40,720 nucleotides of DNA from a virus (IMGVR_UViG_3300036793_000091:1-40720); one strand, 5' to 3'; numbered from the stretch's first letter, positions 10,843 to 33,727 are shown. The notes: a model not told the origin generated them from the letters alone. Made by a program: numbers and translations.

Positions 10843-11303
10843 CACTGCTCGCAGCTCTATTGCTCAACCATTCCGCGGCCGCTGTACTGGTATCGGTAGC
10901 GATGGCCCTCGGATTTGCTGGCCTCTTCGCCACCGTGCAGCTCGCTCAGGGCGCCTTCACGACCGACGCCATCAACAAACTACTTGCCGGAGACTTTCTT
11001 CCGATCGCAGCGAGCGGCGTCGTCGATCCACACACCCCAGCGCGCTACGTGATTACAAAGGCCGGCGTCGCCGCGCTCACTTTAAAGGCGCCTGTAGCCG
11101 GCGCCGAAGATGGCCTTTTGATTGAGATCACCTCGACGACTGCGAACGCTCACACCCTGACAACCGTCGCGCTATTCCGCAACGGAGGCGCGAATACGAA
11201 CGTCGCGACCTTTGCCGCGGTCGATGGCGCCTCGATCCTGCTCTGCGCCTACAACGGCAAGTGGTACGTGCAGGGCTCGCAGAACGTGACCTTAACCAGT
11301 TAA
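10839..11303 (+). CDS. beta-rich fibre/decoration-like protein with hydrophobic N-terminal export/anchor segment
   Basis: AGGA RBS; long hydrophobic leader ending QLA|Q; ALTL.AP..G.EDG..I.ITS...AHT...G.S..L.AYNGKWYV. Confidence 0.65.
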   Translation: MTLLAALLLNHSAAAVLVSVAMALGFAGLFATVQLAQGAFTTDAINKLLAGDFLPIAASGVVDPHTPARYVITKAGVAALTLKAPVAGAEDGLLIEITSTTANAHTLTTVALFRNGGANTNVATFAAVDGASILLCAYNGKWYVQGSQNVTLTS

Positions 11304-15742: not shown

Positions 15743-15807
15743 CGCCCGACTTTAGCACCTTCGCCCGCCGCTGCGTCATGCGGCAGAACCACCAAGGAAA
15801 ACAAGCC

Positions 15808-16891: not shown

Positions 16892-18130
16892 ATGCCGAAC
16901 CAGTTTTTGAACACTTCCTGGATCTCCATGGAAGTGCTCCGCAACCTGAAGAACGCGATCAAGGTGATCGAGTACTTCAACTCCGACTGGGAGAAGGACT
17001 ATACGAAGACCTTCGCCGTCGGATCAACGGTCCAGATCAAATTCCCGCAACAGTTCCTCATTCGCGATGGTCTGAACTACAACCCGCAAGGCATCAACCG
17101 CCTCACCACCACCGTTTCGCTCGATCAGCCCTTTGGTATCGACTTCCAGTGGGACGATTACGAAGCGGCCGTCAAGGCGGAGCGCTCGGAAGAGGAGATC
17201 AAAGAGCAGTACCTCAATCCGGCCGGCGTGCAGATCGCACAGGAGATCGATTCCCGCGCGGCTCTCTTCGCTAAAAACAACACCTCGCAGATCGCTGGCA
17301 TCCTCGGCACCGATCCGACGAGCGTCGCGTACCTCGATATCGCCCGCGCCCGCTTGCTCCAGAAGGCTGCGCCGCAGACGAAGCGTTGTGCATTGATTTC
17401 TTCCTCGATGCAGAACAACTCGATCAATACGCCCGTCACGAGCCTTTTTCACCCATCGGATGAAATCACCATGGCCTTCAAGGAAGGCGCGCTCGGCCGT
17501 CTCAAGGGCTTCGACGTGTTTGAAGAGCAGGCGCTCTACTCACACACCGCTGGCACCTGGGCTGGCGCAGTCACCGTCAACGGCGGCGGCCAATCAGGCA
17601 CAAACCTGATCGTCACTGCGACCGCTGGCGATACGTTCAATAAGGGCGACAAGATCGCGGTCCTGAACGTGAACATGGTCAACCCGCGCACTCGGCGCTC
17701 GCCTGGGCCGAAGACGCAGCAGACGTTCACCGTCACGCAGGACGTGGTCTGTGTCGGCGGCGGCGTCGACGTGATTCCAATCCTGCCCGCGATGCGCGGT
17801 CCTGGCGATCCTTACCAGACGATCGATGCATTGCCCGCAGCCGGCGCTGCGCTCACGCTGTGGCCCGGAACCTCAAACCCGAACGGCGTTTCCGGCACTT
17901 TCGGACTCGCACTGACGAAGCAGGCATTCGCTGTAGTTGGAATGCGCTTCTATCTGCCGAAGTCGGTCGAGGCCCGCAGCCAGGCTGAAGACAAGGCGAC
18001 CGGAATCCCGGTGCGCTTCGTTAAGGCGTGGGATCCGGTCCGCTCGATGCAGATCCACCGCTTCGACACGGTCTGCGGATTCGGCAACCTGTATCAAGAC
18101 AACGGGGCCGTCGGCCTCCTTGGAGCCTAA
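16892..18130 (+). CDS. major capsid protein (P22 gp5/coat family)
   Basis: N.FL..SWIS.E.L..L.N, G.TV.I..P, L.PA..QIA..ID, I-domain GD...VNP, RFD...GF. Confidence 0.93.
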   Translation: MPNQFLNTSWISMEVLRNLKNAIKVIEYFNSDWEKDYTKTFAVGSTVQIKFPQQFLIRDGLNYNPQGINRLTTTVSLDQPFGIDFQWDDYEAAVKAERSEEEIKEQYLNPAGVQIAQEIDSRAALFAKNNTSQIAGILGTDPTSVAYLDIARARLLQKAAPQTKRCALISSSMQNNSINTPVTSLFHPSDEITMAFKEGALGRLKGFDVFEEQALYSHTAGTWAGAVTVNGGGQSGTNLIVTATAGDTFNKGDKIAVLNVNMVNPRTRRSPGPKTQQTFTVTQDVVCVGGGVDVIPILPAMRGPGDPYQTIDALPAAGAALTLWPGTSNPNGVSGTFGLALTKQAFAVVGMRFYLPKSVEARSQAEDKATGIPVRFVKAWDPVRSMQIHRFDTVCGFGNLYQDNGAVGLLGA

Positions 18131-18187: not shown

Positions 18188-19141
18188 ATGAAAAATAAAA
18201 TCGTAGTTCTCTCGCTCGTCCTTCTGGCTTCCATGCTGGCGCTGCCGGCATTCGGCCAGACCTTGCTCACGCAAACCACGCTCGCCGCCGCGGTTTCGAA
18301 CTCATCGACGACCACGATCAAAGTCGCTTCGGCGACTGGCATCACCGCCAATTCCACGGTGCTCTATATCGCCGATGGCAATTCCGGTGAGGCCGTTGTC
18401 GTCAACTCGGTGAACGGAACCTATATCGGCGTCACGCGCGGCTACCAGACCCTCGGGTCGGCCGCGCCGCACGCTTCAGGAGCTCTCGTTTTCGTTGGAC
18501 CGTCGAACGCCTTTACGACGGTTCAGCCAAGCGGCTCCTGTGTGCGCGCGAACGTGCCCTATTTACCCGTCATCGCGCTCGGTCTAGGCGGGGCCGCAAC
18601 CACCATCTCCGACTGCCTCGGCGGCGTCTGGGTGACTGGCGTCGGAAATCCGTTGCAAGAGTTTCAGGTTCAGGCACCGGGGACCGGCGGCACCGCGTAC
18701 ACGTCGCTCAACGGAACAGGCACGGCAACTGTCGCTGGAACGTTCTACTGCAACGAAATCGATCTCGATGCAAATACATGGATCACCGGCCTCGGTGTCC
18801 TGAACGGCACCACGGTCGGAACCGATAACCACCTGGTCGCGCTCTACGATGCCAGCGGCAACCTGCTGGCGAATAGCGCAGCGGCTGGCGTGCTGGCGGC
18901 TTCGGCTTCCACCTACCAGCAGATTGCATTCACGTCGAAGTACTTCGCGGTTGGTCCCGCGCGGTTTTTCGGCTGTGTGCAATCGAACGGCACGACCGCC
19001 ACGGTACGCATGATCGTCACCGGAACCCAGGACACCTACTTGACTAAGAGCTTCACTGGGGTGTTCGGGACGATCCCTGCCACCTTTACGGTCCCGACCA
19101 CGTTCACAACCGCGGTTGGGCCGTATCTGTACGTTTATTAA
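18188..19141 (+). CDS. putative capsid decoration/fibre protein with Sec signal peptide
   Basis: Directly after coat; MKNKIVVLSLVLLASMLALPAFG|Q; TTL.AAV....T.I.VASATG...E.V.V...V.RG..T.A..H..GA.V; Thr/Gly-rich beta protein. Confidence 0.7.
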   Translation: MKNKIVVLSLVLLASMLALPAFGQTLLTQTTLAAAVSNSSTTTIKVASATGITANSTVLYIADGNSGEAVVVNSVNGTYIGVTRGYQTLGSAAPHASGALVFVGPSNAFTTVQPSGSCVRANVPYLPVIALGLGGAATTISDCLGGVWVTGVGNPLQEFQVQAPGTGGTAYTSLNGTGTATVAGTFYCNEIDLDANTWITGLGVLNGTTVGTDNHLVALYDASGNLLANSAAAGVLAASASTYQQIAFTSKYFAVGPARFFGCVQSNGTTATVRMIVTGTQDTYLTKSFTGVFGTIPATFTVPTTFTTAVGPYLYVY

Positions 19142-19189
19142 AAGAAGTCGTCGCACGTTTTTCGGGGGAGGACCGTGCGCTTGACTGGC

Positions 19190-19228
19190 GCGGGGCTCGG
19201 CCTAACCGGACCGGCCCCGCCCATTTTC
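19190..19228 (+). terminator. possible intrinsic terminator after head genes
   Basis: GCGGGGC...GCCCCGC stem followed by CCATTTTCT. Confidence 0.45.
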
Positions 19229-19238
19229 TAAAACCGCA

Positions 19239-19724
19239 ATGCCACTGCACGAAGCGAAATCCAAAAACTCACGCGAGAGCTTTCCGCTCGCCTTCGATCT
19301 TGAAGGCGTGCCACGGGAAAGAGCGACGCGCGAACTCCTGATGCAACAGGAAAGACAAAAACAAAACGAGGATCACAGCATGAACAGCCCCGAGAATCAC
19401 TTCGCCGTGGATCAGATGCAGGAATTCGATCCCAACAAGCCGCCGCAAAGGCCCTACAATCCGCACGATCCGAAAAACCAATTTCCGCGCATCGTCTACC
19501 ACCACGACACCGGACACGTGCTTCAGGTCGAAGATGAGAAGCAGTTGAAGGCCGCAACAAAACGCGCCTACAAGCTCACACCTGCGCCCGATCGCGACTA
19601 TTCGAAGATCACGAGCTCTGGAATCGCGGCGAAGATTTCAGCCGCCGACGTTCGCGAAGAGCAGCAACTCTCGGCCGCCGATCTCGCCGCGATCGATGAA
19701 GCTGAAAACACAAACGACGAGTAA
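19239..19724 (+). CDS. head-associated hypothetical protein (start uncertain; may be 19341 or 19380)
   Basis: FPRIVYH...V.DE..L..A....Y..P motif typical of the post-coat gene in P22-like phages. Confidence 0.6.
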   Translation: MPLHEAKSKNSRESFPLAFDLEGVPRERATRELLMQQERQKQNEDHSMNSPENHFAVDQMQEFDPNKPPQRPYNPHDPKNQFPRIVYHHDTGHVLQVEDEKQLKAATKRAYKLTPAPDRDYSKITSSGIAAKISAADVREEQQLSAADLAAIDEAENTNDE

Positions 19725-19728
19725 CTAG

Positions 19729-20556
19729 ATGCCGATCGCACCGCCCAACGCGCCGCCCAACCCGCTCTCCTACATCGTCCTCGACCTCATCACCGATGCG
19801 CTCATTGAAATCGGAGCGCATCCACCAGGTGAAGAAGTCTCGGGCGAAGAGGCGCAGTGGGCCTTCCGCAAGTTCAATTACCTTTGCGACACATGGGCGG
19901 CGCTGCGCGGAAAAGTCTTCTCGTCGCAGTTCAACGTCTACACACTGATTGCCGGCCTCTCGCCGCACTTGATCGGACCGAGCGGCCTCGCGAATTTTTC
20001 CACGTCGCCGCAACCGCGCCCGGTCCGCATCGAATCGGCTGCTCTGCTTTTGAATAACGCCGGCGCCAACGGCCCGGTCGATCAGCAGATCAATATTCGC
20101 GATGCCGCATGGTGGGCGGCACAGCAGGTCAAGAGCATTCAGACGGACGTCCCGACCGACCTCTTCTACAACCCCTCGAGCCCCGATGGCCAGCTCTATT
20201 TCTGGCCGGTCCCAGATTCGCAGCAAAAAGTTCGTTTGCAGCTCTGGCAATCGGTTTCGCAATTTGTCTCGATCCAGGACCCGATCGGCGGACCGGGCGG
20301 ACCGGGCACGCTCCCGCCTGGCTATCGCAACGCGATGATGCTCACGCTCGCCGAGGAGCTCCTGCCGGCGAACAAGCGAGATGAGAATCCGACACTCGCG
20401 GCAAACGCCTTGCGAGCTCGAACCGCAATCTTCGGGAACAACGCGAAGAGCCCGCGGATGACGACACAAGATTCAGGGATGCCGCGCGCCGGCGGAAAAG
20501 GACGCGGAGATTTCAATTGGCAATCCGGCGGAAGAGTCGGCGGTCCGCCCGAATAG
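19729..20556 (+). CDS. head-to-tail adaptor (P22 gp4-like)
   Basis: DLI.DAL.EIG....GE...EE...A...N...D.W; P..LFY......LYFWPVP; LPPGY..A....LA.EL. Confidence 0.82.
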   Translation: MPIAPPNAPPNPLSYIVLDLITDALIEIGAHPPGEEVSGEEAQWAFRKFNYLCDTWAALRGKVFSSQFNVYTLIAGLSPHLIGPSGLANFSTSPQPRPVRIESAALLLNNAGANGPVDQQINIRDAAWWAAQQVKSIQTDVPTDLFYNPSSPDGQLYFWPVPDSQQKVRLQLWQSVSQFVSIQDPIGGPGGPGTLPPGYRNAMMLTLAEELLPANKRDENPTLAANALRARTAIFGNNAKSPRMTTQDSGMPRAGGKGRGDFNWQSGGRVGGPPE

Positions 20557-20562
20557 GAATTT

Positions 20563-20778
20563 ATGCCTGAGAATCCAAAGAACATTCTGACGCTCACTCT
20601 TCGCCTGCACGATCCGGACGAAAAGCAAAACGCTGATCTCTCGACGTCGTGGGTGGTCGTCTCCGTCCCGCGCGAGAACCTGAAGCTCTCGCAGCCGGAT
20701 TTCATCGCGAAATATATCGTGCCGGCACTCGGAGAACTGAAGCAGATCGCCGTGGCAGCAGAAAGCAAACTGCCTTAA
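20563..20778 (+). CDS. hypothetical protein
   Basis: AGGA RBS; fills gap in tail operon. Confidence 0.6.
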   Translation: MPENPKNILTLTLRLHDPDEKQNADLSTSWVVVSVPRENLKLSQPDFIAKYIVPALGELKQIAVAAESKLP

Positions 20779-20784
20779 CCCTTT

Positions 20785-22239
20785 ATGGCCGGCTCCTGGG
20801 GCTTCTGCGGTCCAACTTACACGGCGCAATCGCCGAACATCGACGACGAAGACGCAATGAACTGCTATTGCGAGAAGTCGGAGTCGAGCGGAGCGAAGGT
20901 GCCGATCGCGCTCCTACATACGCCCGGCCTCAAGAAGTTTGCGGCCGTCGGCGAAGGCTCGATGCCCGGCAGCTTCAGCGTGAACGGCCGCACCTTTTTT
21001 GCCGCTTCGAATTTGTATGAGCTCGCAGCGAATGGCGCGACCACAAACCGCGGGAGCTTGGGCGCGGCGCCGACGACGCCGACACAGATCACCGCGAACG
21101 AAACGCAGCTCGTCGTTTTGAACAATGGCAACATCTACGTGCTGACGCTCGCGACCAATGTTCTCGTCGCCGTCAACATGGCCCAGTTCAACGGCCCGGT
21201 CGCGCAAATCGATTTCATCGATGGCTACATCATCGCGACGCTCCAGAATTCGCATACTTTTCAGGTTTCAAACCTCGAAGACGGGACAACCTGGAACGGG
21301 CTGAACATCGCGACGCTCTCTTATTTCCCGGACAACATCGTCTCGATGAAGGTCGATCACCGGCAACTGCGATTCTGGTCGAACAAAAAGTCGATCGCCT
21401 ATTACAACGCCGGCGCCGGCTTCCCGCCCTTCATCCCTTACCAGGACTCTGAGCTCGAGGACGGCTCGGGCGCGGCCTTCGCAACCGTGCAAGCGGATAA
21501 CACGCTCTTTTGGCTGAGCCAGGACGAGCGCGGCGCGATGGTTGCGAAGCGCCTCTCGTCGAACAGCGGGAGTGAGCGCTTCTCGACGCACGCGGTCGAA
21601 CTGGCCTGGCAGCAATATGCGATCAACTCCGATTGCGTCGGCTATTCGTATCAGGAGTACGGGCACACTTTCATCCACTTTTATTTTCCGAACGCGAATG
21701 CTTCCTGGCGCTACGACGTTGCGACGGGCCTCTGGCACAAAGTCGGCTATTTCGTCACGCAGACCGGAAAGTATATTGCCCATCGCTCGATGTGCCACAC
21801 CTTCAACTTCGGAATGCACCTTGTCGGCGACTGGGCGACGGGCACGGTTTATCAGATGTCGAGCTTGCTCCTCGATGACGACGGCAATCCCATCCGCGGC
21901 TATCGGCGCACGCCGACGAATTCAAAAGACAACGAGTGGATTTATTTTGAGGAGCTCGAGCTCGACGTCGAAACCGGTCTCGGCCCGCAGCCGCCTTTGC
22001 TCGACGGCGACGGTCAACCGCGAGGACCGCAACTCATGCTCCGCTGGACAAATGATGCCGGGAAAACATGGTCGAACGAATATATTCTGTCGTGCGGCAA
22101 GGCCGGAGAAACCCTCAAGCGAGTCGTGAAGCGCATGCTCGGCCGCGCGCGCAAACGGGTGTGGGAAGTTTCCTGGACGGACCCGGTTCCCTGGCGCTTC
22201 GCCGATGCCTATCTGCGCGCCACACCCGAAATTGAGTAA
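20785..22239 (+). CDS. tail hub / packaged DNA stabilisation protein (P22 gp10-like)
   Basis: N.Y.E...L..TPGL, F.DGY, S.L.D...W, PD.I, ST.A.E, Y...GH.F, YD..TG.WH, L.W..D.G.TW, R.LG..R.R. Confidence 0.9.
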   Translation: MAGSWGFCGPTYTAQSPNIDDEDAMNCYCEKSESSGAKVPIALLHTPGLKKFAAVGEGSMPGSFSVNGRTFFAASNLYELAANGATTNRGSLGAAPTTPTQITANETQLVVLNNGNIYVLTLATNVLVAVNMAQFNGPVAQIDFIDGYIIATLQNSHTFQVSNLEDGTTWNGLNIATLSYFPDNIVSMKVDHRQLRFWSNKKSIAYYNAGAGFPPFIPYQDSELEDGSGAAFATVQADNTLFWLSQDERGAMVAKRLSSNSGSERFSTHAVELAWQQYAINSDCVGYSYQEYGHTFIHFYFPNANASWRYDVATGLWHKVGYFVTQTGKYIAHRSMCHTFNFGMHLVGDWATGTVYQMSSLLLDDDGNPIRGYRRTPTNSKDNEWIYFEELELDVETGLGPQPPLLDGDGQPRGPQLMLRWTNDAGKTWSNEYILSCGKAGETLKRVVKRMLGRARKRVWEVSWTDPVPWRFADAYLRATPEIE

Positions 22240-22242
22240 GCG

Positions 22243-22581
22243 ATGCCGACAAGCGTAACCAATCTCTTTCCGCCATCGCTACGTGATTCGTCGCTCCCGA
22301 AAGGGCTCGAACGGTATCTCTTCACGCTGCAAAGACTCTCTCCGCTCTACGAGGTCGACACAACGAGCGGCCCCTACTCGGAAGCGGTCCCGCCGGCGGG
22401 GCTCTCGTCGACAGCAACTGGCGCGAGCAATCAAAACATGGAGATCACTTACGTGAAGACTTCGGCTGATGCGAACGTCTTCACGCTAACGGGCGTGCAG
22501 CTCGGGGCTTTGACACTCACCGCCCAGGGCGATCACTTCAAAATCAAAAGCGACGGCACAAATTGGTGGCGGGTTGCATGA
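22243..22581 (+). CDS. tail needle/knob-like protein (gp26 position)
   Basis: Position after gp10; C-terminal VKTS.DAN..T....LT.Q......SDGTNWW beta-knob motif. Confidence 0.6.
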   Translation: MPTSVTNLFPPSLRDSSLPKGLERYLFTLQRLSPLYEVDTTSGPYSEAVPPAGLSSTATGASNQNMEITYVKTSADANVFTLTGVQLGALTLTAQGDHFKIKSDGTNWWRVA

Positions 22582-23033
22582 AAGTCGCAAGATGCCGCGA
22601 CTGGAAGCTCATCTGGGAGCTCGCAACCGACCCGTCGATCTTCCCGCACATTTCGGACGACTTCACGACCGAGCCGCGGCAATGGGTGCCGCCACAGAAC
22701 GAGCAGATGATCTGCCTCGTCGCCTGGGACGGTGACAACCCTCTCGGCTTCGGGATCTTCGCGCCGACGAACTGGGTTTGCTACACAGCGCACATCGGCT
22801 TTCTGCCCAGAAGTTACGGGGCGAAGTCGATCGCCGGTTTCAAACAGATGCTCAGCTGGATGTGGGAGCACACGAAGGCCGTTCGCATCGTCGGCGAGAT
22901 TGCGATCGAGAACCGGCGCGCGATCGCCTTTGTGCGGCGCGCGGGCTTCGTCGCTTACGGCATCAATCCGAAAAGCATTTTGCGCGGCAACATCTTGCGC
23001 GACCAGGTTGCGCTCGGGATCTCCCGACCATAA
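22578..23033 (+). CDS. GNAT-fold protein (P22 gp14 position)
   Basis: H.GFLP..YG, G.I...NRRAI.F..R.GF..YG. Confidence 0.8.
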   Translation: MKVARCRDWKLIWELATDPSIFPHISDDFTTEPRQWVPPQNEQMICLVAWDGDNPLGFGIFAPTNWVCYTAHIGFLPRSYGAKSIAGFKQMLSWMWEHTKAVRIVGEIAIENRRAIAFVRRAGFVAYGINPKSILRGNILRDQVALGISRP

Positions 23034-23043
23034 GGAATAAACC

Positions 23044-23775
23044 ATGTCATTCGTCAGCTCATTAGTCGGTGGAATTCTAGGCTCGGGCGCTGCGAACGAT
23101 GCAGCGAGCGTCGAATCGCAGGCAGCGAAAAAGGCGCAGGATCTCGAAAAGCAAAACCAGACCGACGCGCTCAACGCGCAGAACGGCGTCTGGTCGGGCA
23201 CGCAGGCCGCGGAGCAGCCCTACCAGGACCTCGGCCGGACTTCCGCGAACAGTCTTCGCAACCTGCTCCAGACGGGCTTTAAAGCCCCGACCCTCGCCGA
23301 AGCGGAACAGACTCCCGGCTTCAAGTTCAACCTCGAACAGGGCACGAACGCCATCAATCAGAACGCGGCCGCGAACGGTACGCTCATGTCCGGCAACACC
23401 GGCGTCGCGCTTGAGAAGTACGGCCAGAACCTCGCCGAGACCACATATCAGCAGGATTATCAGAACGCCATGAATTCTTACATGGCGAACTACAACACGC
23501 TCCAGGGCGGAACGAATACCGGCCTCACATCCACCGGGCAGCTCGGGCAGTTCGGGCAGGAGTTCGCAAACAACACCGGCAATATCGATCTCACCGCCGC
23601 AGATCAGCAGGCAAAGCAAATCAACAATGCCGCGGCCGCGCGAGCTTCCGGGTATCTCGGATCAGCGGGTGCGTGGAGTGGCGCCGCCGGCGGCATGGCC
23701 GCGGGCGCAGCAAACCTCGATCTCAGCGGCGGCTCTTCGCTCTTAGAGAACGTCGGAAATTTTCTGATGGCTTAA
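23044..23775 (+). CDS. DNA ejection protein (gp7-like)
   Basis: AAGGA RBS; Gly/Ala/Gln-rich; PY..LG, PGF.F.L.QG..A....AAA.G...SG.T..AL..YGQ.LA. Confidence 0.85.
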   Translation: MSFVSSLVGGILGSGAANDAASVESQAAKKAQDLEKQNQTDALNAQNGVWSGTQAAEQPYQDLGRTSANSLRNLLQTGFKAPTLAEAEQTPGFKFNLEQGTNAINQNAAANGTLMSGNTGVALEKYGQNLAETTYQQDYQNAMNSYMANYNTLQGGTNTGLTSTGQLGQFGQEFANNTGNIDLTAADQQAKQINNAAAARASGYLGSAGAWSGAAGGMAAGAANLDLSGGSSLLENVGNFLMA

Positions 23776-23779
23776 ACCT

Positions 23780-25465
23780 ATGGGAACCGTACCAGCTCCA
23801 AACATCGCCGAAATGGGCATGCAGATTGCCCAGGCACCGGCAAACACTTTCGCCGAATACGCGCGTGCCGCTAACTTGCGGCAGCAGACCGCGCTCGCCC
23901 AGCAGCAAACGCAGGGCGCCGCGCTCGAAAATCAGCAGAGGCAGCAGGCGATCACCAACCAGAAAGCCATCGGCCAAGCGATGCTCGGATGGGACGGCAA
24001 AGATCCCGGCGAACTATCAAAAGCGATCATCACTCATGGGGGCACCGCAGATGCCGCCATGAACACGCAAAAGCATTTTCTCGATGTTCGCACGCAGGCC
24101 TCGACCCTCGACAAAGACAACCTCGCGAACCTGAAAATGCACAACGATGCCGCGCTCGGGGCCTTTCACTCGCTCGATAGCGTCGCTGACGAGGATCTCC
24201 CGAACGCGGTCCTCACAACCGCTCACGGCCTGCTCCAATCTGGACACATTCAGCCGCAGGATTTTCAGCAGGTGCAACAGATGGCTGGATTGCCCGGATC
24301 CGAATTACGCCAGCATCTCGCCATCTGGGAAAAAGGCCATCAAGGCTATGACGAGCAGTTTAAGCAGGCCGATGATCTGAGGAAGAGCCAAGTCGCGAAG
24401 CAGGAGGCCGATACAAAACAACAAGAGGCAAACGCGAAGGACTGGCAGAAGGACGATCAGCTCGGCATGTTCTTCAACACGCGGACCGGCGAAGTGAAGA
24501 CACCGATGGGGCAGATGGTTTCGCCGGCGATGCTCGAATCGAAGTACGTCCAACTTGCGGCCAAAAAAGCCGCCGGCCAACCTCTCGCTCCCGAAGATAC
24601 CGCTTTCATGAAGGGCGTCGAAAGATATAAAACGCTCGTGCCTCAGTTCACGATCAACCAAAACACGACCGGCGCGGGCTTGATCCCCGGGGCTGGGCAA
24701 CCAGGTGGCCAAGGCGGCGCTCCGCCGACCATTGAAAATGTTCCGGCTTCGATTGCCGGCCGCGTGAAACAGATCATCGATTACCGTGGTCCGATGCCGC
24801 CAGCTGGCCGCAATAATCCCGTCAATACCGCGATCAGCTACTGGGTGAACCAGCTCGATCCGCAACACGACGAGACGAACTATGGCGCGCGCAACAAGAT
24901 GATGACCAACATCACCTCGGGCGCTCTCGGTAAGCAATTGAACGCGACCAACACGGCTCTCGGACACATCAAAGTGCTGAACGACGCGATCGACGCACTA
25001 AACAATAACAGCGTTCCAATGCTCAACGCGATCGCGAACAAACTCGGCATCGCGATCGGCGACACCCCCGCCACTACGTTTAAAACGATTGTGCACCGCG
25101 TTGGTCCAGAACTCGCATCGGCCTACATCGAAGGCGGCGGCGGAGAACATGAGCGCGGGACGACGGCCGCTGATTTCTCGGAAAACGCAGCGCCAGCGCA
25201 ATTGAAGGCGAATGCGGCGATCACCGCCCAATTGCTGCGCTCGAAAATCGGCGCTACCGAACAGCAATACAAAACGACAATGCGGCGCGAGGACTTCCAG
25301 GACCGCTTTCTCACTCCCGAAGCGAAGGCCACTCTTGCAGAACTTTCGCCTGCTAAGAGCGCAGACGGCAAGGCGATCTCCGTCAAAGCCCCAAACGGTA
25401 AGACCTACAACTTCCAAGATCAGGCCTCCGCCGATCGATTCAAGAAGGCCGCTGGAATCCAGTGA
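23780..25465 (+). CDS. DNA ejection protein (gp20-like)
   Basis: Position; Q/A-rich helical protein; C-terminal V.APNG..Y.F..Q..A..FK. Confidence 0.7.
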   Translation: MGTVPAPNIAEMGMQIAQAPANTFAEYARAANLRQQTALAQQQTQGAALENQQRQQAITNQKAIGQAMLGWDGKDPGELSKAIITHGGTADAAMNTQKHFLDVRTQASTLDKDNLANLKMHNDAALGAFHSLDSVADEDLPNAVLTTAHGLLQSGHIQPQDFQQVQQMAGLPGSELRQHLAIWEKGHQGYDEQFKQADDLRKSQVAKQEADTKQQEANAKDWQKDDQLGMFFNTRTGEVKTPMGQMVSPAMLESKYVQLAAKKAAGQPLAPEDTAFMKGVERYKTLVPQFTINQNTTGAGLIPGAGQPGGQGGAPPTIENVPASIAGRVKQIIDYRGPMPPAGRNNPVNTAISYWVNQLDPQHDETNYGARNKMMTNITSGALGKQLNATNTALGHIKVLNDAIDALNNNSVPMLNAIANKLGIAIGDTPATTFKTIVHRVGPELASAYIEGGGGEHERGTTAADFSENAAPAQLKANAAITAQLLRSKIGATEQQYKTTMRREDFQDRFLTPEAKATLAELSPAKSADGKAISVKAPNGKTYNFQDQASADRFKKAAGIQ

Positions 25466-27129
25466 GCACAGCAGCTCCAACTCTAAGCGTCGACTACGAT
25501 GCGCTCGCCGCGCAACACGGAGCGACTCCGGCAGTGGATTACGATGCGCTCGCACAACAGCACGGAGCGTCATCAAGCGAAGCGCCGATCGACAACCGTT
25601 CCTTGACGGAAAAAGCGGGCGACGTGATGGGGCGCGCCGCCGAGCGAGTGAAATCAAATCTTACTCCGGACAATATCGCCGACAGCATCTCCGCTCTCAT
25701 CCAGCAAGCGGAAGACACGATTCGCCATCCTTCACAAAAATCAAACCTCGTCGAGAACCTTAAAAATGCCTATAACTCCCTGAAAACGACTTACTCCGAT
25801 CCGGCAAACGTTATCGGCGATGTCGCGACCGGCGCGCTTACCGGCGGGTTAGGGGAAGCAGAAGGCCCGGCCGCATCTGTTGCCCGCGAAGCCGCTCCCG
25901 CTGCTGCTCGAGGCGTTGCCCCCGCCGTAAGCGAAGAAGCGCTCGGAAGAATCAGCCGCGTGGCGAATGTTTTAGAGCACAACGTCCCTGGCGCAGAGCC
26001 GATCGCGAAAGCGGTTCGTCTCGTGAAACTGCCCGGCAAGTTGCTGGATGCGTGGAACGGACCAGAGCCGCCCGCGCCGCCAACGCCGAAGCCTCCAGCA
26101 GCTGCGATTCCCGAAACCGACGGAGTCCCGTGGGGCAGCGGCGGACAAGGCCCTCTCGACTTGCGTGGAAAAAGAATTGAGACGCCTGCATCTGAAGCGG
26201 CTCCCGCGCCGGAAGCGACTGCGGCCGCGTCAGAAACCCCTGCGACGGCCGCGTCGCCGGCGACGGTGCCGGCGGGATCCGCGAAGCTCGAAGAATTATT
26301 GAACGATGCTTTAGGCGGCAAGCCTCTGAAGCCTGGCGTCACGCTCAAGAATCAGGCGACAGCTGCAGCTGTAGCAGATCTTCCCGAGGGATTCACGCCG
26401 GTGAAGTCATCGGCCTTACGCGGTTACAAGTACGATCCCGCAACCCGCGAATTCGAATCGGTTACAAGCGGTGGCCAGCGCTACGTTCACGGCGACGTCT
26501 CCCCTGAAGAGGCGCAGGCCTTCGAGTCGGCCGAGTCGAAAGGAAAAGCCTGGCAGCAGATCCGCGAAAATCCGCTTGTCGCAAAAGTTGTGAATGGCAA
26601 ACGGATGCCGATCGTGAAGCCACAACCACGCACCGTCGTGCTGGATCCAGAAACTGGCCGGCCGGAATTTTCCGATGTAATCGCGGCAAAGAGAAACGCA
26701 GCAGCTCCAGCAGCTGCAGCTCCACAATCGAAGCCTGCGGCTGCACCTGGCGAAGAGGACCTCACTTCCCTGCTCCAGCAATCTGTCGACCAGGTGAAGG
26801 TTGGTAAAGGCGGTGTCATGACGTCGGCCGAGCCTGGCGCGCTCGCTAAACGTTGGGGAGTGGATCCGGAAAGCCTCAGCTCGGGACGCGAGCAAACTCG
26901 CGGCATGACTCCGGAGCAGACGGAAGCGTACATCGAGAAGCTCGCCGACTCTTATCGCAAGGGCCGTCCGGTCGAACCTGTGATGGAAACGCGCGACGCT
27001 CAGAACAACATCGTCGACGTGGATGGAAGAGCACGCGCGATCGCGGCGCAGCGGGCAGGAATTAAAAGGATTCCGATTATGATCCGGCGCATTGGCGCAG
27101 CTGCGGAGAAAGCGGAGCGTCCTGAGTGA
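25462..27129 (+). CDS. DNA ejection protein (gp16 position) with KTSC and ParB/Srx-like domains
   Basis: N-terminal VDYDALAxQHGA x2; PVKSSALRGYKYDPATR...Y...V......F..AESKGK (KTSC); IEKLADS......EPV......VDGRARAIAA...G...IP (ParB-like). Confidence 0.75.
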   Translation: MSTAAPTLSVDYDALAAQHGATPAVDYDALAQQHGASSSEAPIDNRSLTEKAGDVMGRAAERVKSNLTPDNIADSISALIQQAEDTIRHPSQKSNLVENLKNAYNSLKTTYSDPANVIGDVATGALTGGLGEAEGPAASVAREAAPAAARGVAPAVSEEALGRISRVANVLEHNVPGAEPIAKAVRLVKLPGKLLDAWNGPEPPAPPTPKPPAAAIPETDGVPWGSGGQGPLDLRGKRIETPASEAAPAPEATAAASETPATAASPATVPAGSAKLEELLNDALGGKPLKPGVTLKNQATAAAVADLPEGFTPVKSSALRGYKYDPATREFESVTSGGQRYVHGDVSPEEAQAFESAESKGKAWQQIRENPLVAKVVNGKRMPIVKPQPRTVVLDPETGRPEFSDVIAAKRNAAAPAAAAPQSKPAAAPGEEDLTSLLQQSVDQVKVGKGGVMTSAEPGALAKRWGVDPESLSSGREQTRGMTPEQTEAYIEKLADSYRKGRPVEPVMETRDAQNNIVDVDGRARAIAAQRAGIKRIPIMIRRIGAAAEKAERPE

Positions 27130-27499
27130 TTTCGAAATCGCCATACCGGCACACAGTCGCTTGCGGCAGGATCTTCGCCATGACGTCGGCTTGCTCTGAT
27201 CGGGAATGGATCACGACTTTCCCCGCGAACTTCGAGTAGGCGAGATAGCGCGCAACCTCTTTGCCGTTGCCATGCTGCCGATCGGGATAGCCGGCGTCCA
27301 TCCAGTGCAGATCGTGATCGAGAAAGACGGCGTCGAACTCTTCAGCTGAGAGGATCGCGAGCGCTTCCTCGGCCGTCTTCGCCGAGCGGATCCGCGGCAA
27401 CCGCGAACGAAACCAGTCCAGACGCTCTTCGGTGTCATCGAGCACGAACACTCGCCAGCCGGCAGGAATTTGGATCGACCTACACATCGACGTACACAT
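27077..27499 (-). CDS. cyclic-phosphate-processing receiver (cREC)-like protein
   Basis: VFVLDD..ER, T.EEA..IL, FD.VFLDHDL, G.EVA..L, VVIHS; start may be 27487 or later. Confidence 0.75.
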   Translation of the reverse strand: MCTSMCRSIQIPAGWRVFVLDDTEERLDWFRSRLPRIRSAKTAEEALAILSAEEFDAVFLDHDLHWMDAGYPDRQHGNGKEVARYLAYSKFAGKVVIHSRSEQADVMAKILPQATVCRYGDFEITQDAPLSPQLRQCAGS

Positions 27500-27501
27500 A
27501 T

Positions 27502-29007
27502 ATGAGACATTTTGACGCTCTAACTCGCCCGCGACAATGGCACTTAGGATCAGTTACCAGGCTCGGTTTCTGGCTGTTACTGGCTAGTTACTTCTGTGCC
27601 TCCGCTCTTGCGCAGACGCTGCCAACCGTGATTTTGGCGCCTCTGCCGCAACTTCAGTTCTTTGACCAGGGCGGCCGGCCGCTCGCTTTTGGCTGCGTCT
27701 TCACCTACGTTTCGGGCACGACTACCCCGCTTGCGACCTACACCGATTCGTCGACAGGAACACAAAACCAGAACCCGGTGATCCTCACGGCCGGCGGATC
27801 CGCGAACATCTGGATCCAGGCGGGGCAGGCCTACAGCTTCCGCGTGAAAACAGCGGGCGGCTCGAATTGCGCCTCGGGGAGCACGCTTTACACGGTGAAC
27901 GGCATCGGCGGCGGCGTCTCCGTTTTGACGACCGTGGTGCCTTACTCGTCGACGGTCACTTTTCAGGTTGCTTCGCAGAATCAGCTCTTCCAATTGACGC
28001 TCACCGGCAACGCATCGAGTCTTCCTCTCACGGCCGTCGGAATTGTTCCGCCGGGGCTCATCGCCTTCCAGATCACGCAGGACTCGGCCGGCGGTCACAC
28101 CTTCAGCTGGCCATCGAACGTGATCGGCGGCTGCATCATCGGGAGCGGGACGAACCAGGTCACGACCCAATTCTTCGTTTGGAACGGGACGAACGCGACT
28201 GCAACCGGGCCTTGTGTCACGGGCAGCGGCCCCTCGATCGACGTGGGAGCGATTCTTGCGAGCGGAGTCTTCACCTCGACCGTGACGACAGGCACGTCGC
28301 CGTTTGTGGTCGCGTCGACGACACAGGTAAGCAACCTCAATGCGAATTTCCTCGAAGGCGCCGACTGGGCCTCCCCGGGCACGATCGGATCGACCGCGCC
28401 GAACACCGGAAAATTCACAACCCTCGAAGCGCAGACGAGCTTCAAGCTCAACGGGTCGACGGTACAGACCGGAATTCAGGGCAGCGATACGAAGCTCATG
28501 ACCGCGGGCACCGTTGGAGGGGGGACGGGCGCGGTCCTATGCACTGACGCCCTGGGCGGATCGACGACCGTCTCGTGCCCTGGTGGCGGAACCGCCAACG
28601 TGCCGCAACGCGTCGTGCTCGGATCGCCGTTTTCGCTCACGGCGAATACAGAAGCGATCGTTCTCACTGAGTCAGTCACCTTTCCCTCGGCTCCAGGCAC
28701 TTACCGCGCCGACATGCGATACGGGGCCTGGATCACGGCGGGAGCGAACGCTTGCGCGGCTGAAGTGATCAACGCGACCGGCTCTCACGCGTATGCCTTA
28801 AGCGGCCAGAACGCGAACGGAACGGGATATATGGGGCTCTCGGGCTCCGAAGTTTCTCCGGACACATTCGCGGCCTCGTCGACGGCCACCTTCAATCTGG
28901 TGATGATCTGCAACTCGAACCAGACCGTAACCGTACTTAGCGGAATCTTCTCCTTCTCCATCGGTGAGCCGACCTATCTCGCCGTGACGCCGGTTTTAAG
29001 CAACTAG
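27502..29007 (+). CDS. tail fibre/adaptor with podoviral virion-attachment N-domain, preceded by signal peptide
   Basis: FWLLLASYFCASALA|Q then QFFDQGGRPLA.G.V.TY.SGTTTPLATYTD..G..N.NPV.L.A.G.A.IW; GTSPFVVASTTQVSNLNA fibre motif. Confidence 0.8.
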   Translation: MRHFDALTRPRQWHLGSVTRLGFWLLLASYFCASALAQTLPTVILAPLPQLQFFDQGGRPLAFGCVFTYVSGTTTPLATYTDSSTGTQNQNPVILTAGGSANIWIQAGQAYSFRVKTAGGSNCASGSTLYTVNGIGGGVSVLTTVVPYSSTVTFQVASQNQLFQLTLTGNASSLPLTAVGIVPPGLIAFQITQDSAGGHTFSWPSNVIGGCIIGSGTNQVTTQFFVWNGTNATATGPCVTGSGPSIDVGAILASGVFTSTVTTGTSPFVVASTTQVSNLNANFLEGADWASPGTIGSTAPNTGKFTTLEAQTSFKLNGSTVQTGIQGSDTKLMTAGTVGGGTGAVLCTDALGGSTTVSCPGGGTANVPQRVVLGSPFSLTANTEAIVLTESVTFPSAPGTYRADMRYGAWITAGANACAAEVINATGSHAYALSGQNANGTGYMGLSGSEVSPDTFAASSTATFNLVMICNSNQTVTVLSGIFSFSIGEPTYLAVTPVLSN

Positions 29008-29026
29008 AACCCGCAAACCTAATCCC

Positions 29027-32017
29027 ATGAAAACCTTTATCTGCTCACTTCTGTTACTCGCTTCCCTTCCTGCGCTGGCGCAAAACGTGCGCTTTGACGC
29101 GCCTTTCCCGTCGGTCTCTTCAGCGTCGACGACTCCGTACCTGGTCGCGAACGTGCCGCCCAATTCGCCGGTGCTTGCGGTCTGCAACTCGCCCGCGAAT
29201 GCCGTGCCCTGCACGAACTATGCGACGACTTACACGAGCGCCGGCGTCGCGTGCCCGAATGGAGCGCAAGACACTCCGCAGCCACAGCCCTCCGCGTGCC
29301 AGGCCTCCGGAGACGCGCAAGGCAACATCGGCTTCTGGGCTCCGCCCGCAAAATACGACTACACGGTCTGCGTCGGCACGAATTGCTATGGCCCCTACAC
29401 GGTGACGATCGGGGGCGGAAGCTCAAGCGTCGCCGGCGCGACGCCGAATGGCGGCCTGTTGCTGACGGGCGGCACGACTCTCGGCCTGTTGACTAGCTGC
29501 AACGCGCCAAACGTCGAGATTTACAACGGCACGGCATGGATCTGCGGCAATCAGATCCCGATCACAAACGTCGCGGGCCTTGCGAGTGTGCTCGGGAAGC
29601 AGAATGGTTCGCTTGCTGTAGTGACGAATGGATCGAGTGCCCTCGATTGCAGCAGCGGCGGCGGTGCGAACACCGTACTCTGTCAGTTCAATGGCTCGGG
29701 CTGGTCCGCAGTAGCGAGCGCCGGGAAACAGCTCGTCGATGTGCGGGACTACGGCGCCGTGGGCGATGCGCAGCTCGCGACCGATTGCTCGTCGATATCC
29801 GGCTCGGCGGTCATCAATTGTTCGACATCCCATTTCACGTCTGCTGATATCGGGAAAGTAATCGTTCTATGGCAGGCGGGACTAATCTATAGCGTTAATT
29901 TTACCGAGCCTTTAAGCGCGACCATCCTCACCGTCAATTCTGGAACGCAAGTAACTCTAAGTGTGGCAGCGGGAGCGACCATCAACCCATCGCCCCATAC
30001 GGCCTGGGGCACAAACAATCAGACCGCCGTCACGAACGCGATCAATAACTCGACGTGCTCGAAAACAAACGCGGGCGATCAAAGCGGGTGCACTCTTTAC
30101 TTTCCACACGGCTACTACCTGTTGCAAATGATCGAATTCCCGTGCGGCGCCCTCGGGACGTTTGGACCGTACACGTGCACCACGTTTTCGAAGAATATTA
30201 CGATCACCGGCGATTCGGCCACGACAACACACCTCGAGAATTGGGATGGGAACGAAGCGAACACAATTTGCGCGGCTTACACCTACACTTGCGGGCTGAT
30301 CTCGTTCGGGGCACACAGCACAAACGAGGGAAGCTTCTCAGATGCGGCGCACGTGGTTCAAGGCGTTACGATCAAAGACATGCGACTGACGCAAGCACCG
30401 TACGGTGCTGGCAATTTCTTCAAGTCGAATGGCGTCGTGTCCCTCGGCCTGACCAAAGATTCCGAGCTTCGCAACACCTTCATCGAGGGGTCTTCGTATC
30501 TATGTGTGAGCGGCGGCGGCGGCACGATGCCCAACGCAAACATGAAGATTCACGACAACTTCTTGCGCTTTTGCGGGTGGGGCGGTCCGGCGATCGGCAA
30601 CTCACAGGCAGCCCTCAACCCGATCGCGCCCTACACGAAGATCTACAACAACACCGTTTATTACTCAGCCCAATGCGTGGAGACAAGCGCGCCATTCGTC
30701 GAAGTATTGAACAATCGCTGCGAAGCTCTCGACGACGTCACGGGAGCCGCGATGCCGGCCTATGTCAATCCGCAATGGTGTCTGAATTTTGATTCCTCTA
30801 CGTACGGCTTTTGGGATATGACGATCATAGGCAACCTCTGCCGCCACTACGGCAGCGGCGGCTACATAGTGAACACCGTCAACGTGATGAGCAATATCGA
30901 CATGGAGGACAACACCTTCGTGAACACGCAGAGTTTCACTCTGCAGGGCGGGATCGAGGGGCCGACGACGGGATGGCCTAACGGACTTCTGCCGCCGCAG
31001 GTGCACGGCACATCGTATTTTGTTAATAACAAGTTCATTTTCGACGGCAGCTTCACCGCAGGACTCCAAACCATTGGGATCATTCTTAATTCTGCGAAAG
31101 AAAAGTGGGTGATTGATCGCAACACCATAGTGTTAGCGGGCTCACTCAACGGTTCGAATTGCACCAGTTGCAACGGCCTAAAACTGATAGGCGGCATTCC
31201 CGGTTGGCAACCCTCGACTACTTACACGGTGAGCCTCACGGCGCCGAGCTATGTGCAGCCATCGATCCCGAATAGCTTCTGGTACGCGACGCTTGCGGCG
31301 GGAACGACCTGCACGAGCGGCGCGGCCCCCGGTCCAACGTTTCCGACGGTTATCGGCAACACCGTGGCAGACGGTACTTGCACCTGGAAAAACATGGGAC
31401 CAAAGCCGGTCCACGCGATCTCTAATTTGAGTATCGCATTCCCCACCGGATCGACGAATAACCAGTGGGTCGTGTGGAACCAAGGGGTGCTTCCGTCCGA
31501 CTTCACTATCAGTAATCTCCAGGTCTCGGGCGGCCTGATCGGCGGAGTGCCCGAGAGCCAATATCAAACCGCGGTGAGCTTCGGTTTGCAAGGATTCCCG
31601 CCGTCATGGAGCCCAACGACGGGCTTGAGAATTCGCGAGGGTCTGCCATTCGGTAACGCGAATTTGCTCAGCAGCAACAGCGCGATCCCCGGCGGAAATT
31701 ACTATCGTGTGGGCGACACGGTTTACCAGCACATCCCCGCGGCCACCACGAGTCCTGGATGGGTCACGCTCACCGCAGGATGGCACGCAAACGCATGGAT
31801 TGCGACTCACGCGTACGTGTACAACGACATCATTCAAGCGGTCACCGATAACGGACACGTATTCGTCGCGCAAGGTACATGCACGTCCGGAACTCCAGAA
31901 CCAACGTGGAACCTAGGCGCGGGAACAATCACCGCAGATAACGCCGGCGGCGGTACTTGCAGCTGGAAGGAAGCTGGCGCCGACGCCACTTTCGGCAAGA
32001 TCGCAGCTCTTCAATAA
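29027..32017 (+). CDS. tailspike (beta-helix depolymerase-like) with signal peptide and two CBM-like W-x4-Y repeats
   Basis: MKTFICSLLLLASLPALA|Q; VDVRDYGAVGD...A...AI...TLYFP.G.Y pectate-lyase-3-type entry; Asn-rich beta-helix; 30 Cys in the mature part. Confidence 0.82.
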   Translation: MKTFICSLLLLASLPALAQNVRFDAPFPSVSSASTTPYLVANVPPNSPVLAVCNSPANAVPCTNYATTYTSAGVACPNGAQDTPQPQPSACQASGDAQGNIGFWAPPAKYDYTVCVGTNCYGPYTVTIGGGSSSVAGATPNGGLLLTGGTTLGLLTSCNAPNVEIYNGTAWICGNQIPITNVAGLASVLGKQNGSLAVVTNGSSALDCSSGGGANTVLCQFNGSGWSAVASAGKQLVDVRDYGAVGDAQLATDCSSISGSAVINCSTSHFTSADIGKVIVLWQAGLIYSVNFTEPLSATILTVNSGTQVTLSVAAGATINPSPHTAWGTNNQTAVTNAINNSTCSKTNAGDQSGCTLYFPHGYYLLQMIEFPCGALGTFGPYTCTTFSKNITITGDSATTTHLENWDGNEANTICAAYTYTCGLISFGAHSTNEGSFSDAAHVVQGVTIKDMRLTQAPYGAGNFFKSNGVVSLGLTKDSELRNTFIEGSSYLCVSGGGGTMPNANMKIHDNFLRFCGWGGPAIGNSQAALNPIAPYTKIYNNTVYYSAQCVETSAPFVEVLNNRCEALDDVTGAAMPAYVNPQWCLNFDSSTYGFWDMTIIGNLCRHYGSGGYIVNTVNVMSNIDMEDNTFVNTQSFTLQGGIEGPTTGWPNGLLPPQVHGTSYFVNNKFIFDGSFTAGLQTIGIILNSAKEKWVIDRNTIVLAGSLNGSNCTSCNGLKLIGGIPGWQPSTTYTVSLTAPSYVQPSIPNSFWYATLAAGTTCTSGAAPGPTFPTVIGNTVADGTCTWKNMGPKPVHAISNLSIAFPTGSTNNQWVVWNQGVLPSDFTISNLQVSGGLIGGVPESQYQTAVSFGLQGFPPSWSPTTGLRIREGLPFGNANLLSSNSAIPGGNYYRVGDTVYQHIPAATTSPGWVTLTAGWHANAWIATHAYVYNDIIQAVTDNGHVFVAQGTCTSGTPEPTWNLGAGTITADNAGGGTCSWKEAGADATFGKIAALQ

Positions 32018-32026
32018 AACACCGCA

Positions 32027-32089
32027 GTGACTCCACAACAAAAGCAATTCTTGAGGGAAGCCTTTGCCTCGGCCGAGAAGGCCTTATGA
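32027..32089 (+). other. 20-codon mini-ORF coupled to the lysin (possible remnant of a replaced lysin gene)
   Basis: GTG-TPQQKQFLREAFASAEKAL-TGA; stop overlaps ATG 32086. Confidence 0.35.
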
Positions 32090-32514
32090 AGATCGATATT
32101 TTTAGATTCCTCGAAACCGACCGCTCGATCACGGACCGCGTCCTCGTCGACGGCGAGCAATTCTGTTTCGCGCTTGAGCCTTCGCGCCTTCACCCGGTCC
32201 ATGCGGGGCACCCGTGCATTCCGTGCGGAGTCTTCAAAGTGAAGCTCACCATGAGCCCGCATTTTGGTTATGTCACGCCGGAGCTCCTCGACGTCCCAGG
32301 ACGCACGAATATTCGCTGGCACAAAGGCAATGAGCCGAAAGATTCTCTCGGCTGCACCTGTGTCGGCGAGAGCTACGGTCCGCAACCTGATTGGGTTGGC
32401 GGCAGCAAGCCCGCATTCGATCGACTGATGCAGCTCTGCGAGGCGGCAGAAGCGCGTCACGAAGAGATCACCGCGGAATATCACGACATCGCACCACAGG
32501 AGACAAAACCATGA
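32086..32514 (+). CDS. DUF5675-family putative endolysin (L,D-peptidase-like His/Cys)
   Basis: FCFALEP...CIPCG.F.V....SP.F...P.L.DVPGR.NIR.H.GN...DS.GC..VG. Confidence 0.85.
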   Translation: MKIDIFRFLETDRSITDRVLVDGEQFCFALEPSRLHPVHAGHPCIPCGVFKVKLTMSPHFGYVTPELLDVPGRTNIRWHKGNEPKDSLGCTCVGESYGPQPDWVGGSKPAFDRLMQLCEAAEARHEEITAEYHDIAPQETKP

Positions 32515-33077
32515 GCATCACCTCGTTCGCCAAAAAAGCGGCACCGTGGATTGCGACCATCGCATCGGCCGCCGTCCCGGGCGCTGCGCCTTTTTTAAAT
32601 ATCGCCGCGAAGCTTTTGTCGAATGGCCTCGGAGCAGATATTAAGGCGGACCCGCAAAGCATTCAGAATGCGATTACGACTGCTATGGCGAGCCCAGAGC
32701 AACTAGCGATCCTGAAAAAGGTCGACGATGACTTCGCCGTGCAAATGCGCTCGCTCGGAATTCAGGAAGCCGAAGATGTCGCGAAAATGATGACCGACGA
32801 TCTAGCGAACGCCCGCGCCCGCGAAGTGGCGGTGAAAGATTCAACCCCGCGCGTCCTGGCATACGGGATCGTGATGCTCGCGCTCCTGGCGTCGTATATC
32901 GTCCTCGCCGGGAAATCTCCGGCGCTCAAAGACACGACTGGCGCAACACTCGTCGGCGTCGTGATCGGTTACATCTTTGGCGAAGTGAAGCAGGTTTTCT
33001 CGTACTACTTCGGCAGCTCGGCCGGCAGCGATCGCAAAACCGAATTGCTCGCCGAAGCGCCACCGGTTTCGAAGTAA
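32511..33077 (+). CDS. holin
   Basis: AGGAG RBS; AP.IAT, D...AR.RE, two C-terminal TM helices, V..YYFGSS.GS..K. Confidence 0.82.
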   Translation: MSITSFAKKAAPWIATIASAAVPGAAPFLNIAAKLLSNGLGADIKADPQSIQNAITTAMASPEQLAILKKVDDDFAVQMRSLGIQEAEDVAKMMTDDLANARAREVAVKDSTPRVLAYGIVMLALLASYIVLAGKSPALKDTTGATLVGVVIGYIFGEVKQVFSYYFGSSAGSDRKTELLAEAPPVSK

Positions 33078-33107
33078 TAGATTTTCCAAGGAAGGAACAC
33101 AAACAGC

Positions 33108-33712: not shown

Positions 33713-33727
33713 ATAGCTCCTCAAAAA

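Follow-up and report, generated by a model that had tools for sequence, protein, structure and literature searches.

Can a tailed phage have the outermost proteins of its particle folded outside the cytoplasm of its host? The question is raised by the record IMGVR_UViG_3300036793_000091, a linear virus contig of 40,720 bases (guanine plus cytosine (GC) content 59%, estimated to be 87% complete), which was analysed as a whole and is referred to here as the window. The accepted view is that virions of tailed phages reach completion in the cytoplasm. In the window, three late genes, named here by their first nucleotide, encode proteins with basic-hydrophobic leaders, each apparently cut before a glutamine (Gln): the decoration-like gene behind the coat gene (18188), a fibre or tailspike gene (27502) and a large spike gene (29027). 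The virus is, as assigned from its genes alone, an uncultured P22-like podovirus, and its outer accessory proteins appear to have been rerouted through the secretion pathway. Our best reading, which we hold to be likely though well short of certain, is that these proteins undergo export through the Sec system, fold with disulfides in the periplasm and are attached to finished, DNA-filled heads at lysis.

The leaders themselves were called with our own heuristic for the n-, h- and c-regions, combined with conservation among relatives; for the latter, the best 120 of 703 matches were taken for 18188 (the query included), the best 150 representatives of 15,636 matches for the 27502 anchor domain and, in a further search, the best 120 of 163, a choice biased towards close kin. 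A sequence-only reading of the window had proposed Sec-type leaders cut before Gln on these three proteins and none on the portal, coat, gp4, gp10 and ejection proteins, and both proposals were borne out. Leaders of 23, 37 and 18 residues were found and are conserved, with a basic n-region, a hydrophobic h-region and small residues at -3 and -1 in the alignments of all three families, and the terminase, portal, scaffold and coat and the gp4-, gp10-, gp7-, gp20- and gp16-position proteins of the window all fail the same heuristic. Gln at +1, the feature of the Q-rule, was kept in 113/117 relatives of 18188, 54/54 of 29027 and 123/134 of 27502. The leader feature is thus real, conserved and widespread. 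Relatives in one group of loci (L032-L039) carry further small and large leader-bearing genes between the fibre and lysis genes, up to four of them in L033. The three mature proteins (18257-19141, 27613-29007 and 29081-32017) are also rich in serine and threonine, 19-25% as against about 14% in the coat and hub, a composition that would be compatible with periplasmic O-glycosylation.

For 18188 the conservation is that of a signal rather than of a sequence: pairwise identity among the 117 aligned relatives is 31% in the leader and 57% in the mature part, whilst a positive n-region is kept in 116/117, a 10-residue hydrophobic core in 112/117 and glycine, alanine or serine at -1 in all 117, with a median leader length of 23 residues. 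Two more relatives (P0069 and P0090) were omitted from this alignment (A1) for their over-long called starts; each holds an embedded leader, so that a leader is present in 119/119. In 47/47 metagenome loci with an upstream coat match, from 79 loci examined, no more than 160 nt separate the gene from that of the coat. One contig from the genome scan, L027, was dropped as a spurious match to a leader only. The mature protein was modelled with AlphaFold as two domains, at a predicted local distance difference test (pLDDT) score of 94.4. The best match to its C-terminal jelly-roll, of the carbohydrate-binding type, is 9jwb_Z (Z 16.8, root-mean-square deviation 3.4, 156 aligned residues; Foldseek E 3e-5), a chain taken, by its length and fold, as cyanophage A4 gp25. 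The N-terminal barrel resembles those of phage virion proteins at Z 7-10.7, including the I-domain of the P22 coat, and may be beta-tulip-like, a reading of our own in which lambda gpD itself is absent from the listed matches. No single solved chain combined, over the full length, the tulip and jelly-roll with a leader and two cysteine (Cys) pairs. Coat adjacency and modelled fold together suggest a capsid decoration or cement-like protein.

The 27502 protein carries its leader directly in front of a domain of known type. This anchor is 50% identical to the N-terminus of the tail spike of Xanthomonas phage PBR31, encoded at the same gene position; it matches tailspike N-termini in 33 records of the phage collection and was matched by phmmer to the 9vyg tail spike (E 7e-4) and the head-binding domain of Pam1 (7eeq, E 1.2e-3). 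A leader precedes it in 134 of the best 150 representatives; the other 16 comprise three whose long upstream extension nevertheless ends in a leader, five that appear N-terminally cut and have both anchor Cys, and eight that are leaderless. Eight of ten related leader-bearing loci have a long leader like that of 27502, and two have a short one. The fibre body beyond the anchor had no family or structure match, and the plasmid collection gave zero matches to the fibre.

The large spike is laid out like a receptor-binding protein: its N-terminal sandwich is conserved and its body highly variable. Its leader and Gln +1 recur in 54 of 55 proteins with the same N-domain, the exception being N-terminally cut, and four Cys of the domain are invariant in 55/55; three relatives (P0122-P0124) were left out of these statistics as they had no N-domain match. 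The middle region is probably a right-handed beta-helix, to judge from an Atlas score of 0.95 to beta-helix clusters (149 of 256 shared features), a match to a pectin-lyase-like protein of BcepMigl (E 1e-3) and PF12708 in 3/57 relatives. The N-domain also occurs, with a leader, elsewhere in related loci, between terminase and portal or directly after the gp4-position gene (L011 3185-3856, L013/L014 3453-4178, L022 3936-5801). Pfam, PHROGs and NCBIfam leave the three proteins unnamed but for phrog_26190 in the fibre anchor and phrog_20658 at the C-terminus of the spike, and tblastn against cultured phages matched neither 18188 nor the spike N-domain.

The second line of evidence is the cysteines. 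The mature proteins of the window hold 4, 8 and 30, with Cys making up 1.7-3.1% of residues in the two tailspike-type proteins; these even numbers, and the close pairing in the spike, had been pointed out from the sequence and both proved sound. The mature count is even in 116/117 members of the 18188 family, in 109/117 fibres of at least 300 residues and in 50/54 spikes, despite their variable C-terminal parts, whereas 95 cytoplasmic proteins for comparison (terminase, portal, coat, gp4, gp10 and GNAT proteins from related loci) gave 40 even, 53 odd and two zero counts. All 15 consecutive Cys pairs of 29027 span at most 26 residues, which was equalled by 2 of 100,000 random placements. The four Cys of 18188 (118, 143, 188 and 263) are invariant in the alignment; an extra pair was gained in 9/117, and C188 and C263 were lost jointly in two distant relatives. 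Spike C115 and C120 are both present in 50 proteins, both absent in five and single in none; fibre C211 and C238 occur together in 18 proteins, are jointly missing from 36 and are single in one. Cysteines therefore seem to be gained and lost in pairs, as disulfides would be.

Leader and cysteines also come and go together. Both anchor Cys are present in 129 of the 134 leader-bearing representatives, so that homologues do keep leader and Cys pair together as the sequence-only reading had wished to see checked, and all eight complete-looking leaderless ones have neither. In four cultured proteobacterial phages (PBR31, H6/1, P26218 and VvAW1) the anchor starts at the methionine and lacks the pair. 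A parallel case exists for 18188: in L097 (4287-5003), L099, L100, L102 and L115 a leaderless protein of about 235 residues directly follows the coat and has the jelly-roll of 18188 without the C188/C263 pair. Two of these, L097 and L115, are P22-like phages with, in addition, a leaderless fibre at the usual place. As leaderless versions of both genes exist without Cys pairs, the leader and the disulfide pattern switch together on both genes. The small N-terminal domain of the leaderless post-coat family differs from that of 18188.

What route to the particle would follow from this? The host Sec system would export the decoration-like protein and both tailspike-type proteins, signal peptidase I (SPase I) would cleave them before Gln, and DsbA-type enzymes would oxidise the Cys pairs in the periplasm; export, cleavage and oxidation are in our view highly probable. 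The N-terminal Gln might then cyclise, by analogy with the Bacteroidota Q-rule. The proteins would wait as periplasmic trimers until lysis opens the inner membrane, at which point the head-binding domain would dock on the gp4/gp10-type neck and the post-coat protein on the mature capsid, steps which we regard with moderate confidence. Everything needed before or during packaging is leaderless, and the choice of genes would be explained if export were confined to parts whose addition can come last. P22 tailspikes are able to attach in vitro to heads that lack a tail. For decoration proteins, late or post-assembly binding is general (PMC7602432), and Dec of phage L, which can also be supplied in vitro, binds to no particles other than mature ones (PMC6449081); in the text of the former paper, a review, the terms signal, disulfide and periplasm do not occur. 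Pfam and PHROGs scans of the late operon found no leaderless tailspike, so that the particle would be without receptor-binding parts unless the exported ones attach. The sequence-only reading had joined export and Dsb-dependent folding to attachment in the periplasm or at lysis: the first part is strongly supported by conservation, paired Cys gain and loss and the Cys-poor leaderless counterparts, and the second has indirect support, since virion attachment is suggested by gene position, the retained head-binding domain, the missing leaderless tailspike and leader-bearing structural proteins in a Cellulophaga phage. The likely gain would be stable, disulfide-stapled surface parts that bind and cut sugars; hiding them from cytoplasmic immune sensors or pre-positioning a depolymerase, as the sequence-only reading suggested, is a speculative one.

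Two cultured phages bring these proposals closer to the bench. Tunturi 1 (PP887698; 10371-23028), a lytic podovirus of Tunturiibacter, an acidobacterium (PMC11924767), has leaders on gp12, gp13, gp14 (the tail spike) and gp17, with 20, 10, 20 and 32 mature Cys (for gp14, 21 minus one in the leader); the small gp15 and gp16 also have leader-like starts. No BLAST or profile match links its proteins to those of the window, its post-coat gene is leaderless whereas that of the window bears a leader, and the main text of its description contains neither signal peptide nor mass spectrometry as terms. The host of the window virus is probably also one of the Acidobacteriota, three relatives being named from metagenome-assembled genomes (MAGs) of Terriglobales or Acidobacteriaceae. 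In Cellulophaga phage phi18:3 (KC821620, 2892-8584), gp085-087 are annotated as structural from tandem mass spectrometry and have leaders and Gln +1, with 0, 1 and 3 Cys, and the other eight mass-spectrometry-annotated proteins examined have no such leader. This phage infects a Bacteroidota host, its record makes no remark on leaders and the likeness to the window is one of leader type; it is nevertheless the sole experimental indication that proteins made with a leader reach tailed virions.

The chief alternative is that the three proteins are exported and disulfide-bonded and never enter the particle, acting instead as free depolymerases or lectins for release or spread, as receptor decoys against superinfection or as proteins of the host surface. 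A leader normally keeps a protein apart from cytoplasmic capsids, and lambda Lom is a signal-peptide gene lying between tail genes (PMC12309495). Free phage depolymerases are known, as are exported endolysins (PMC6116005), Matrishin et al. read the Q-rule leaders of Porphyromonas phage genes, whose function is unknown, as marking host-membrane modifiers (PMC10367356; the rule itself is described in PMC5837995, in whose text "Acidobacter" is absent), and the spike N-domain sits on short proteins away from the tail genes in L011, L013 and L014. Against such a role, the fibre has kept, at the same gene position, a tail-docking domain half identical to the tailspike of a cultured phage, 18188 is invariably found behind the coat gene, phi18:3 has leader-bearing proteins detected as structural, and the phage would otherwise have no tailspike. 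We consider this explanation unlikely, though not negligible. Much less probable still is that the leaders act as membrane tethers, or as pro-peptides cut by a phage protease, with disulfides formed by air oxidation after lysis. Disulfides do occur in tailed virions for which no export is reported (PMC13576161; A4 gp26-gp27), and leaders of Porphyromonas phage capsid proteins have been ascribed to prohead proteases (PMC10367356), but the tripartite structure, the small residues at -3 and -1 and the variable leader sequence speak against this, Pfam and PHROGs scans recognised no protease gene in the window, and the leader and the Cys pairs appear together. This last possibility is the most improbable of those considered.

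Several observations weigh against export followed by attachment at lysis and call for caution. GTG codons occur just past the cleavage site in 7/8 spike loci (mature offset +2) and 7/10 fibre loci (+5/+6), and could serve as internal starts giving each gene a second, cytoplasmic form for the virion, with the exported form as a by-product or assigned to a second job; as ribosome-binding sites are weak throughout the genome, their absence at these codons says little. A two-form arrangement is nonetheless very improbable in our estimation, because the GTGs are ordinary valine codons in a genome of such GC content, only 3/18 of the 18188 loci have a start codon just past the cleavage site, the cytoplasm would not allow the conserved Cys pairs to be oxidised and the Gln +1 is kept in nearly all relatives of 18188 and all of the spike. 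The case for the spike N-domain as a second anchor is also qualified by structure comparison: head-binding domains (Pam1, Sf6 and P22) are five of the top 16 VIA rows at a Z of only 5.4-6.0, tied with generic sandwiches, Foldseek gave nothing for the model at E<=0.001, and hhalign against the fibre anchor gave 1.5%, which is not significant. The jelly-roll of 18188, for its part, has further matches among cellular lectin domains and in tail-tip and minor tail proteins. As the phi18:3 proteins have so few Cys, export need not serve disulfides. Tunturi 3, which infects the same host strain as Tunturi 1, and Tunturi 4 have fibres without leaders in their first 50 kb, which rules out an export rule imposed by the host; since the leaderless Tunturi 3 grows on the strain of Tunturi 1, export would be a property of the phage lineage. 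The host assignment of the window virus leans on only the three named MAG records. Finally, in a quick, midpoint-rooted coat tree of 54 rows, in which the leader labels of L056/L057 and PBR31 were not individually checked, 43 of 47 leader-labelled phages, the window included, fall on one branch, a second is made up of the six leaderless metagenome phages, and the other four with a leader label are placed elsewhere. Since the relatives share ancestry in this way, the counts given above are not independent events.

Comparison with known systems places the export-and-attachment reading more precisely. The tailspikes P22 gp9, Sf6 gp14, Pam1 7EEQ and PBR31 gp34 share with the window a head-binding N-domain, in 27502, on a variable receptor-binding body, encoded after the ejection genes, and the P22-type late operon and the beta-helix of the large spike are further likenesses. 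The P22-type tailspikes checked start at the methionine, lack the anchor Cys pair and contain 0.6-0.8% Cys, in contrast to the cleavable leaders and higher Cys content in the window; their cytoplasmic synthesis without a leader was found for neither window spike, both of which have conserved leaders, a departure that makes them less typical of the class while leaving the analogy in use. With the cement and decoration proteins (A4 gp25, phage L Dec and, of the beta-tulip class, lambda gpD, P74-26 gp87 and phi29 gp8.5) 18188 shares a coat-adjacent gene and a beta-tulip-like barrel. It also shares a carbohydrate-binding jelly-roll with A4 gp25, which is an auxiliary cement protein, forms trimers and has a carbohydrate-binding module (PMC12002296). 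The mosaic adhesive trimers of Bdellovibrio resemble phage fibres, are made with a signal peptide and contain disulfides, with a conserved beta domain at the N-terminus and tips that vary, but they are bacterial surface proteins and not parts of a virion (PMC10769870).

Filamentous phages (Inoviridae) are a familiar case in which virion proteins carry leaders that the host processes: pVIII and pIII are of this kind, and pIII is disulfide-bonded. Inoviruses, however, assemble at the membrane and are extruded without lysis, and such an assembly was rejected for the window phage, which has a terminase, a portal, a leaderless coat of the HK97 type and probable lysis genes. For tailed phages, the literature searched, with subscription journals largely outside it, gave no description of Sec-exported virion proteins. 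Neighbouring reports are of tail-tube disulfides with speculation on host DsbA, in a text that does not use the word periplasm (PMC13576161), and of leaders merely counted in rumen phages (PMC5723332).

The setting of the three genes is an uninterrupted late operon of the P22 type, contiguous from terminase to lysis and in the gene order of PBR31 (Table 1). Searches of the window proteins against Pfam and PHROGs identified the P22-type portal (PF16510, E 2e-86), the coat (PF11651, E 2e-23) and the scaffold (phrog_8865), followed, in the gene order of P22, by a hub of the gp10 type and ejection proteins (phrog_578, phrog_598) with no tape measure; the gp4 (19729) and gp26 (22243) labels are by gene position only. 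A fourth protein, 10839, had been credited with a hydrophobic leader in the sequence-only reading, and this claim failed: no basic residue precedes the hydrophobic stretch, the protein has one Cys, and a similar uncharged extension is found in only about 14 of 119 relatives, in which it carries a conserved histidine. In three proteins (P0443, P0454 and P0473) the 10839 domain is fused behind a leader and an 18188-like N-terminus.

Table 1. Late-operon features of the window, with nucleotide positions counted from its first base.
Feature	Position	Strand	Basis or remark
Small and large terminase	7987..10073	+	Pfam, PHROGs
Small beta protein with uncharged hydrophobic extension	10839..11303	+	Excluded from the exported set
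P22-type portal, leaderless	13384..15627	+	PF16510
Scaffolding protein	15778..16890	+	phrog_8865
P22-type coat protein, leaderless	16892..18130	+	PF11651, phrog_283
18188: Sec/SPase I-type leader, 23 residues, cut before Gln	18188..18256	+	Heuristic, alignment
18188: mature decoration-like protein; barrel (mature 1-85), linker C118/C143, jelly-roll C188/C263	18257..19141	+	Model, alignment
Leaderless neck/tail genes: gp4-position 19729, gp10-type hub 20785, gp26-position 22243	19729..22581	+	phrog_578, head closure, for 20785
GNAT protein and three ejection-position proteins, no Sec leaders	22563..27129	+	phrog_598, DNA ejection
27502: long leader, 37 residues, directly before the anchor	27502..27612	+	Heuristic, related loci
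27502: tailspike head-binding (virion-anchor) domain with added pair C65/C123	27613..27930	+	phmmer, tailspike similarity
27502: remaining fibre; Ser/Thr-rich beta regions, six more Cys (C211/C238 co-vary)	27931..29007	+	Alignment
29027: leader, 18 residues, cut before Gln	29027..29080	+	Heuristic, alignment
29027: conserved N-terminal beta-sandwich, six Cys, possible second anchor domain	29081..29413	+	Alignment, structure comparison
29027: variable part; Cys-paired linker, probable right-handed beta-helix (pectate-lyase-like), C-terminal module phrog_20658	29414..32017	+	
Probable lysis pair: DUF5675 protein and membrane protein (phrog_1544)	32086..33077	+	Function suggested by position

The probable lysis genes (32086-33338) are atypical, consisting of the DUF5675 and phrog_1544 genes and a small open reading frame (ORF) that is hydrophobic at its N-terminus; no ORF with a lipobox, as expected of a spanin, was found within 32480-34000. 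On the opposite strand, at 27077-27499, a lone receiver-domain gene (PF20274 cREC_REC) is inserted between the last ejection gene and the fibre, and the gp16-position protein (25462-27129) contains KTSC and ParB-N domains. Upstream of the portal, a Cys-rich gene with CxxC motifs (12254-12934) is kept in many related loci, and an ORF of low complexity rich in methionine, proline and glycine (10078-10509) follows the large terminase. A serine resolvase/invertase gene (6935-7750) lies directly upstream of the small terminase, the minus strand carries the recombination genes ERF and YqaJ at 2686-4718, and at 36050-38485 there is a HerA/DUF87-type ATPase with C-terminal winged-helix domains, the real start of which is probably downstream of the called one. 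No terminal repeat was found in the window and Rfam gave zero matches.

Taken beyond the single contig, the results lead us to lean, with somewhat less assurance than for the window phage itself, towards a widespread group of tailed phages whose virion would be built in two compartments: head, neck and ejection machinery in the cytoplasm, and the decoration protein and all tailspikes through Sec, disulfide-stapled and added during lysis. Were this so, particles inside the cell would not be infectious, and the phage would rely on SPase I and Dsb enzymes of its host. Infectivity would thus hinge on host secretion and disulfide enzymes, a new point at which resistance could arise, and a secreted branch would add a step to morphogenesis in the Caudoviricetes. 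Annotation pipelines would then be misreading phage signal-peptide genes as host-modifying cargo, and these phages would be a source of naturally secreted, disulfide-stabilised proteins that bind and cut polysaccharides. The reading can be tested directly, as spikes of this kind exist in the cultured Tunturi 1, for which Tunturi 3 offers a leaderless control on the same strain; attachment to the virion, if demonstrated, would come close to a new assembly principle for tailed phages.

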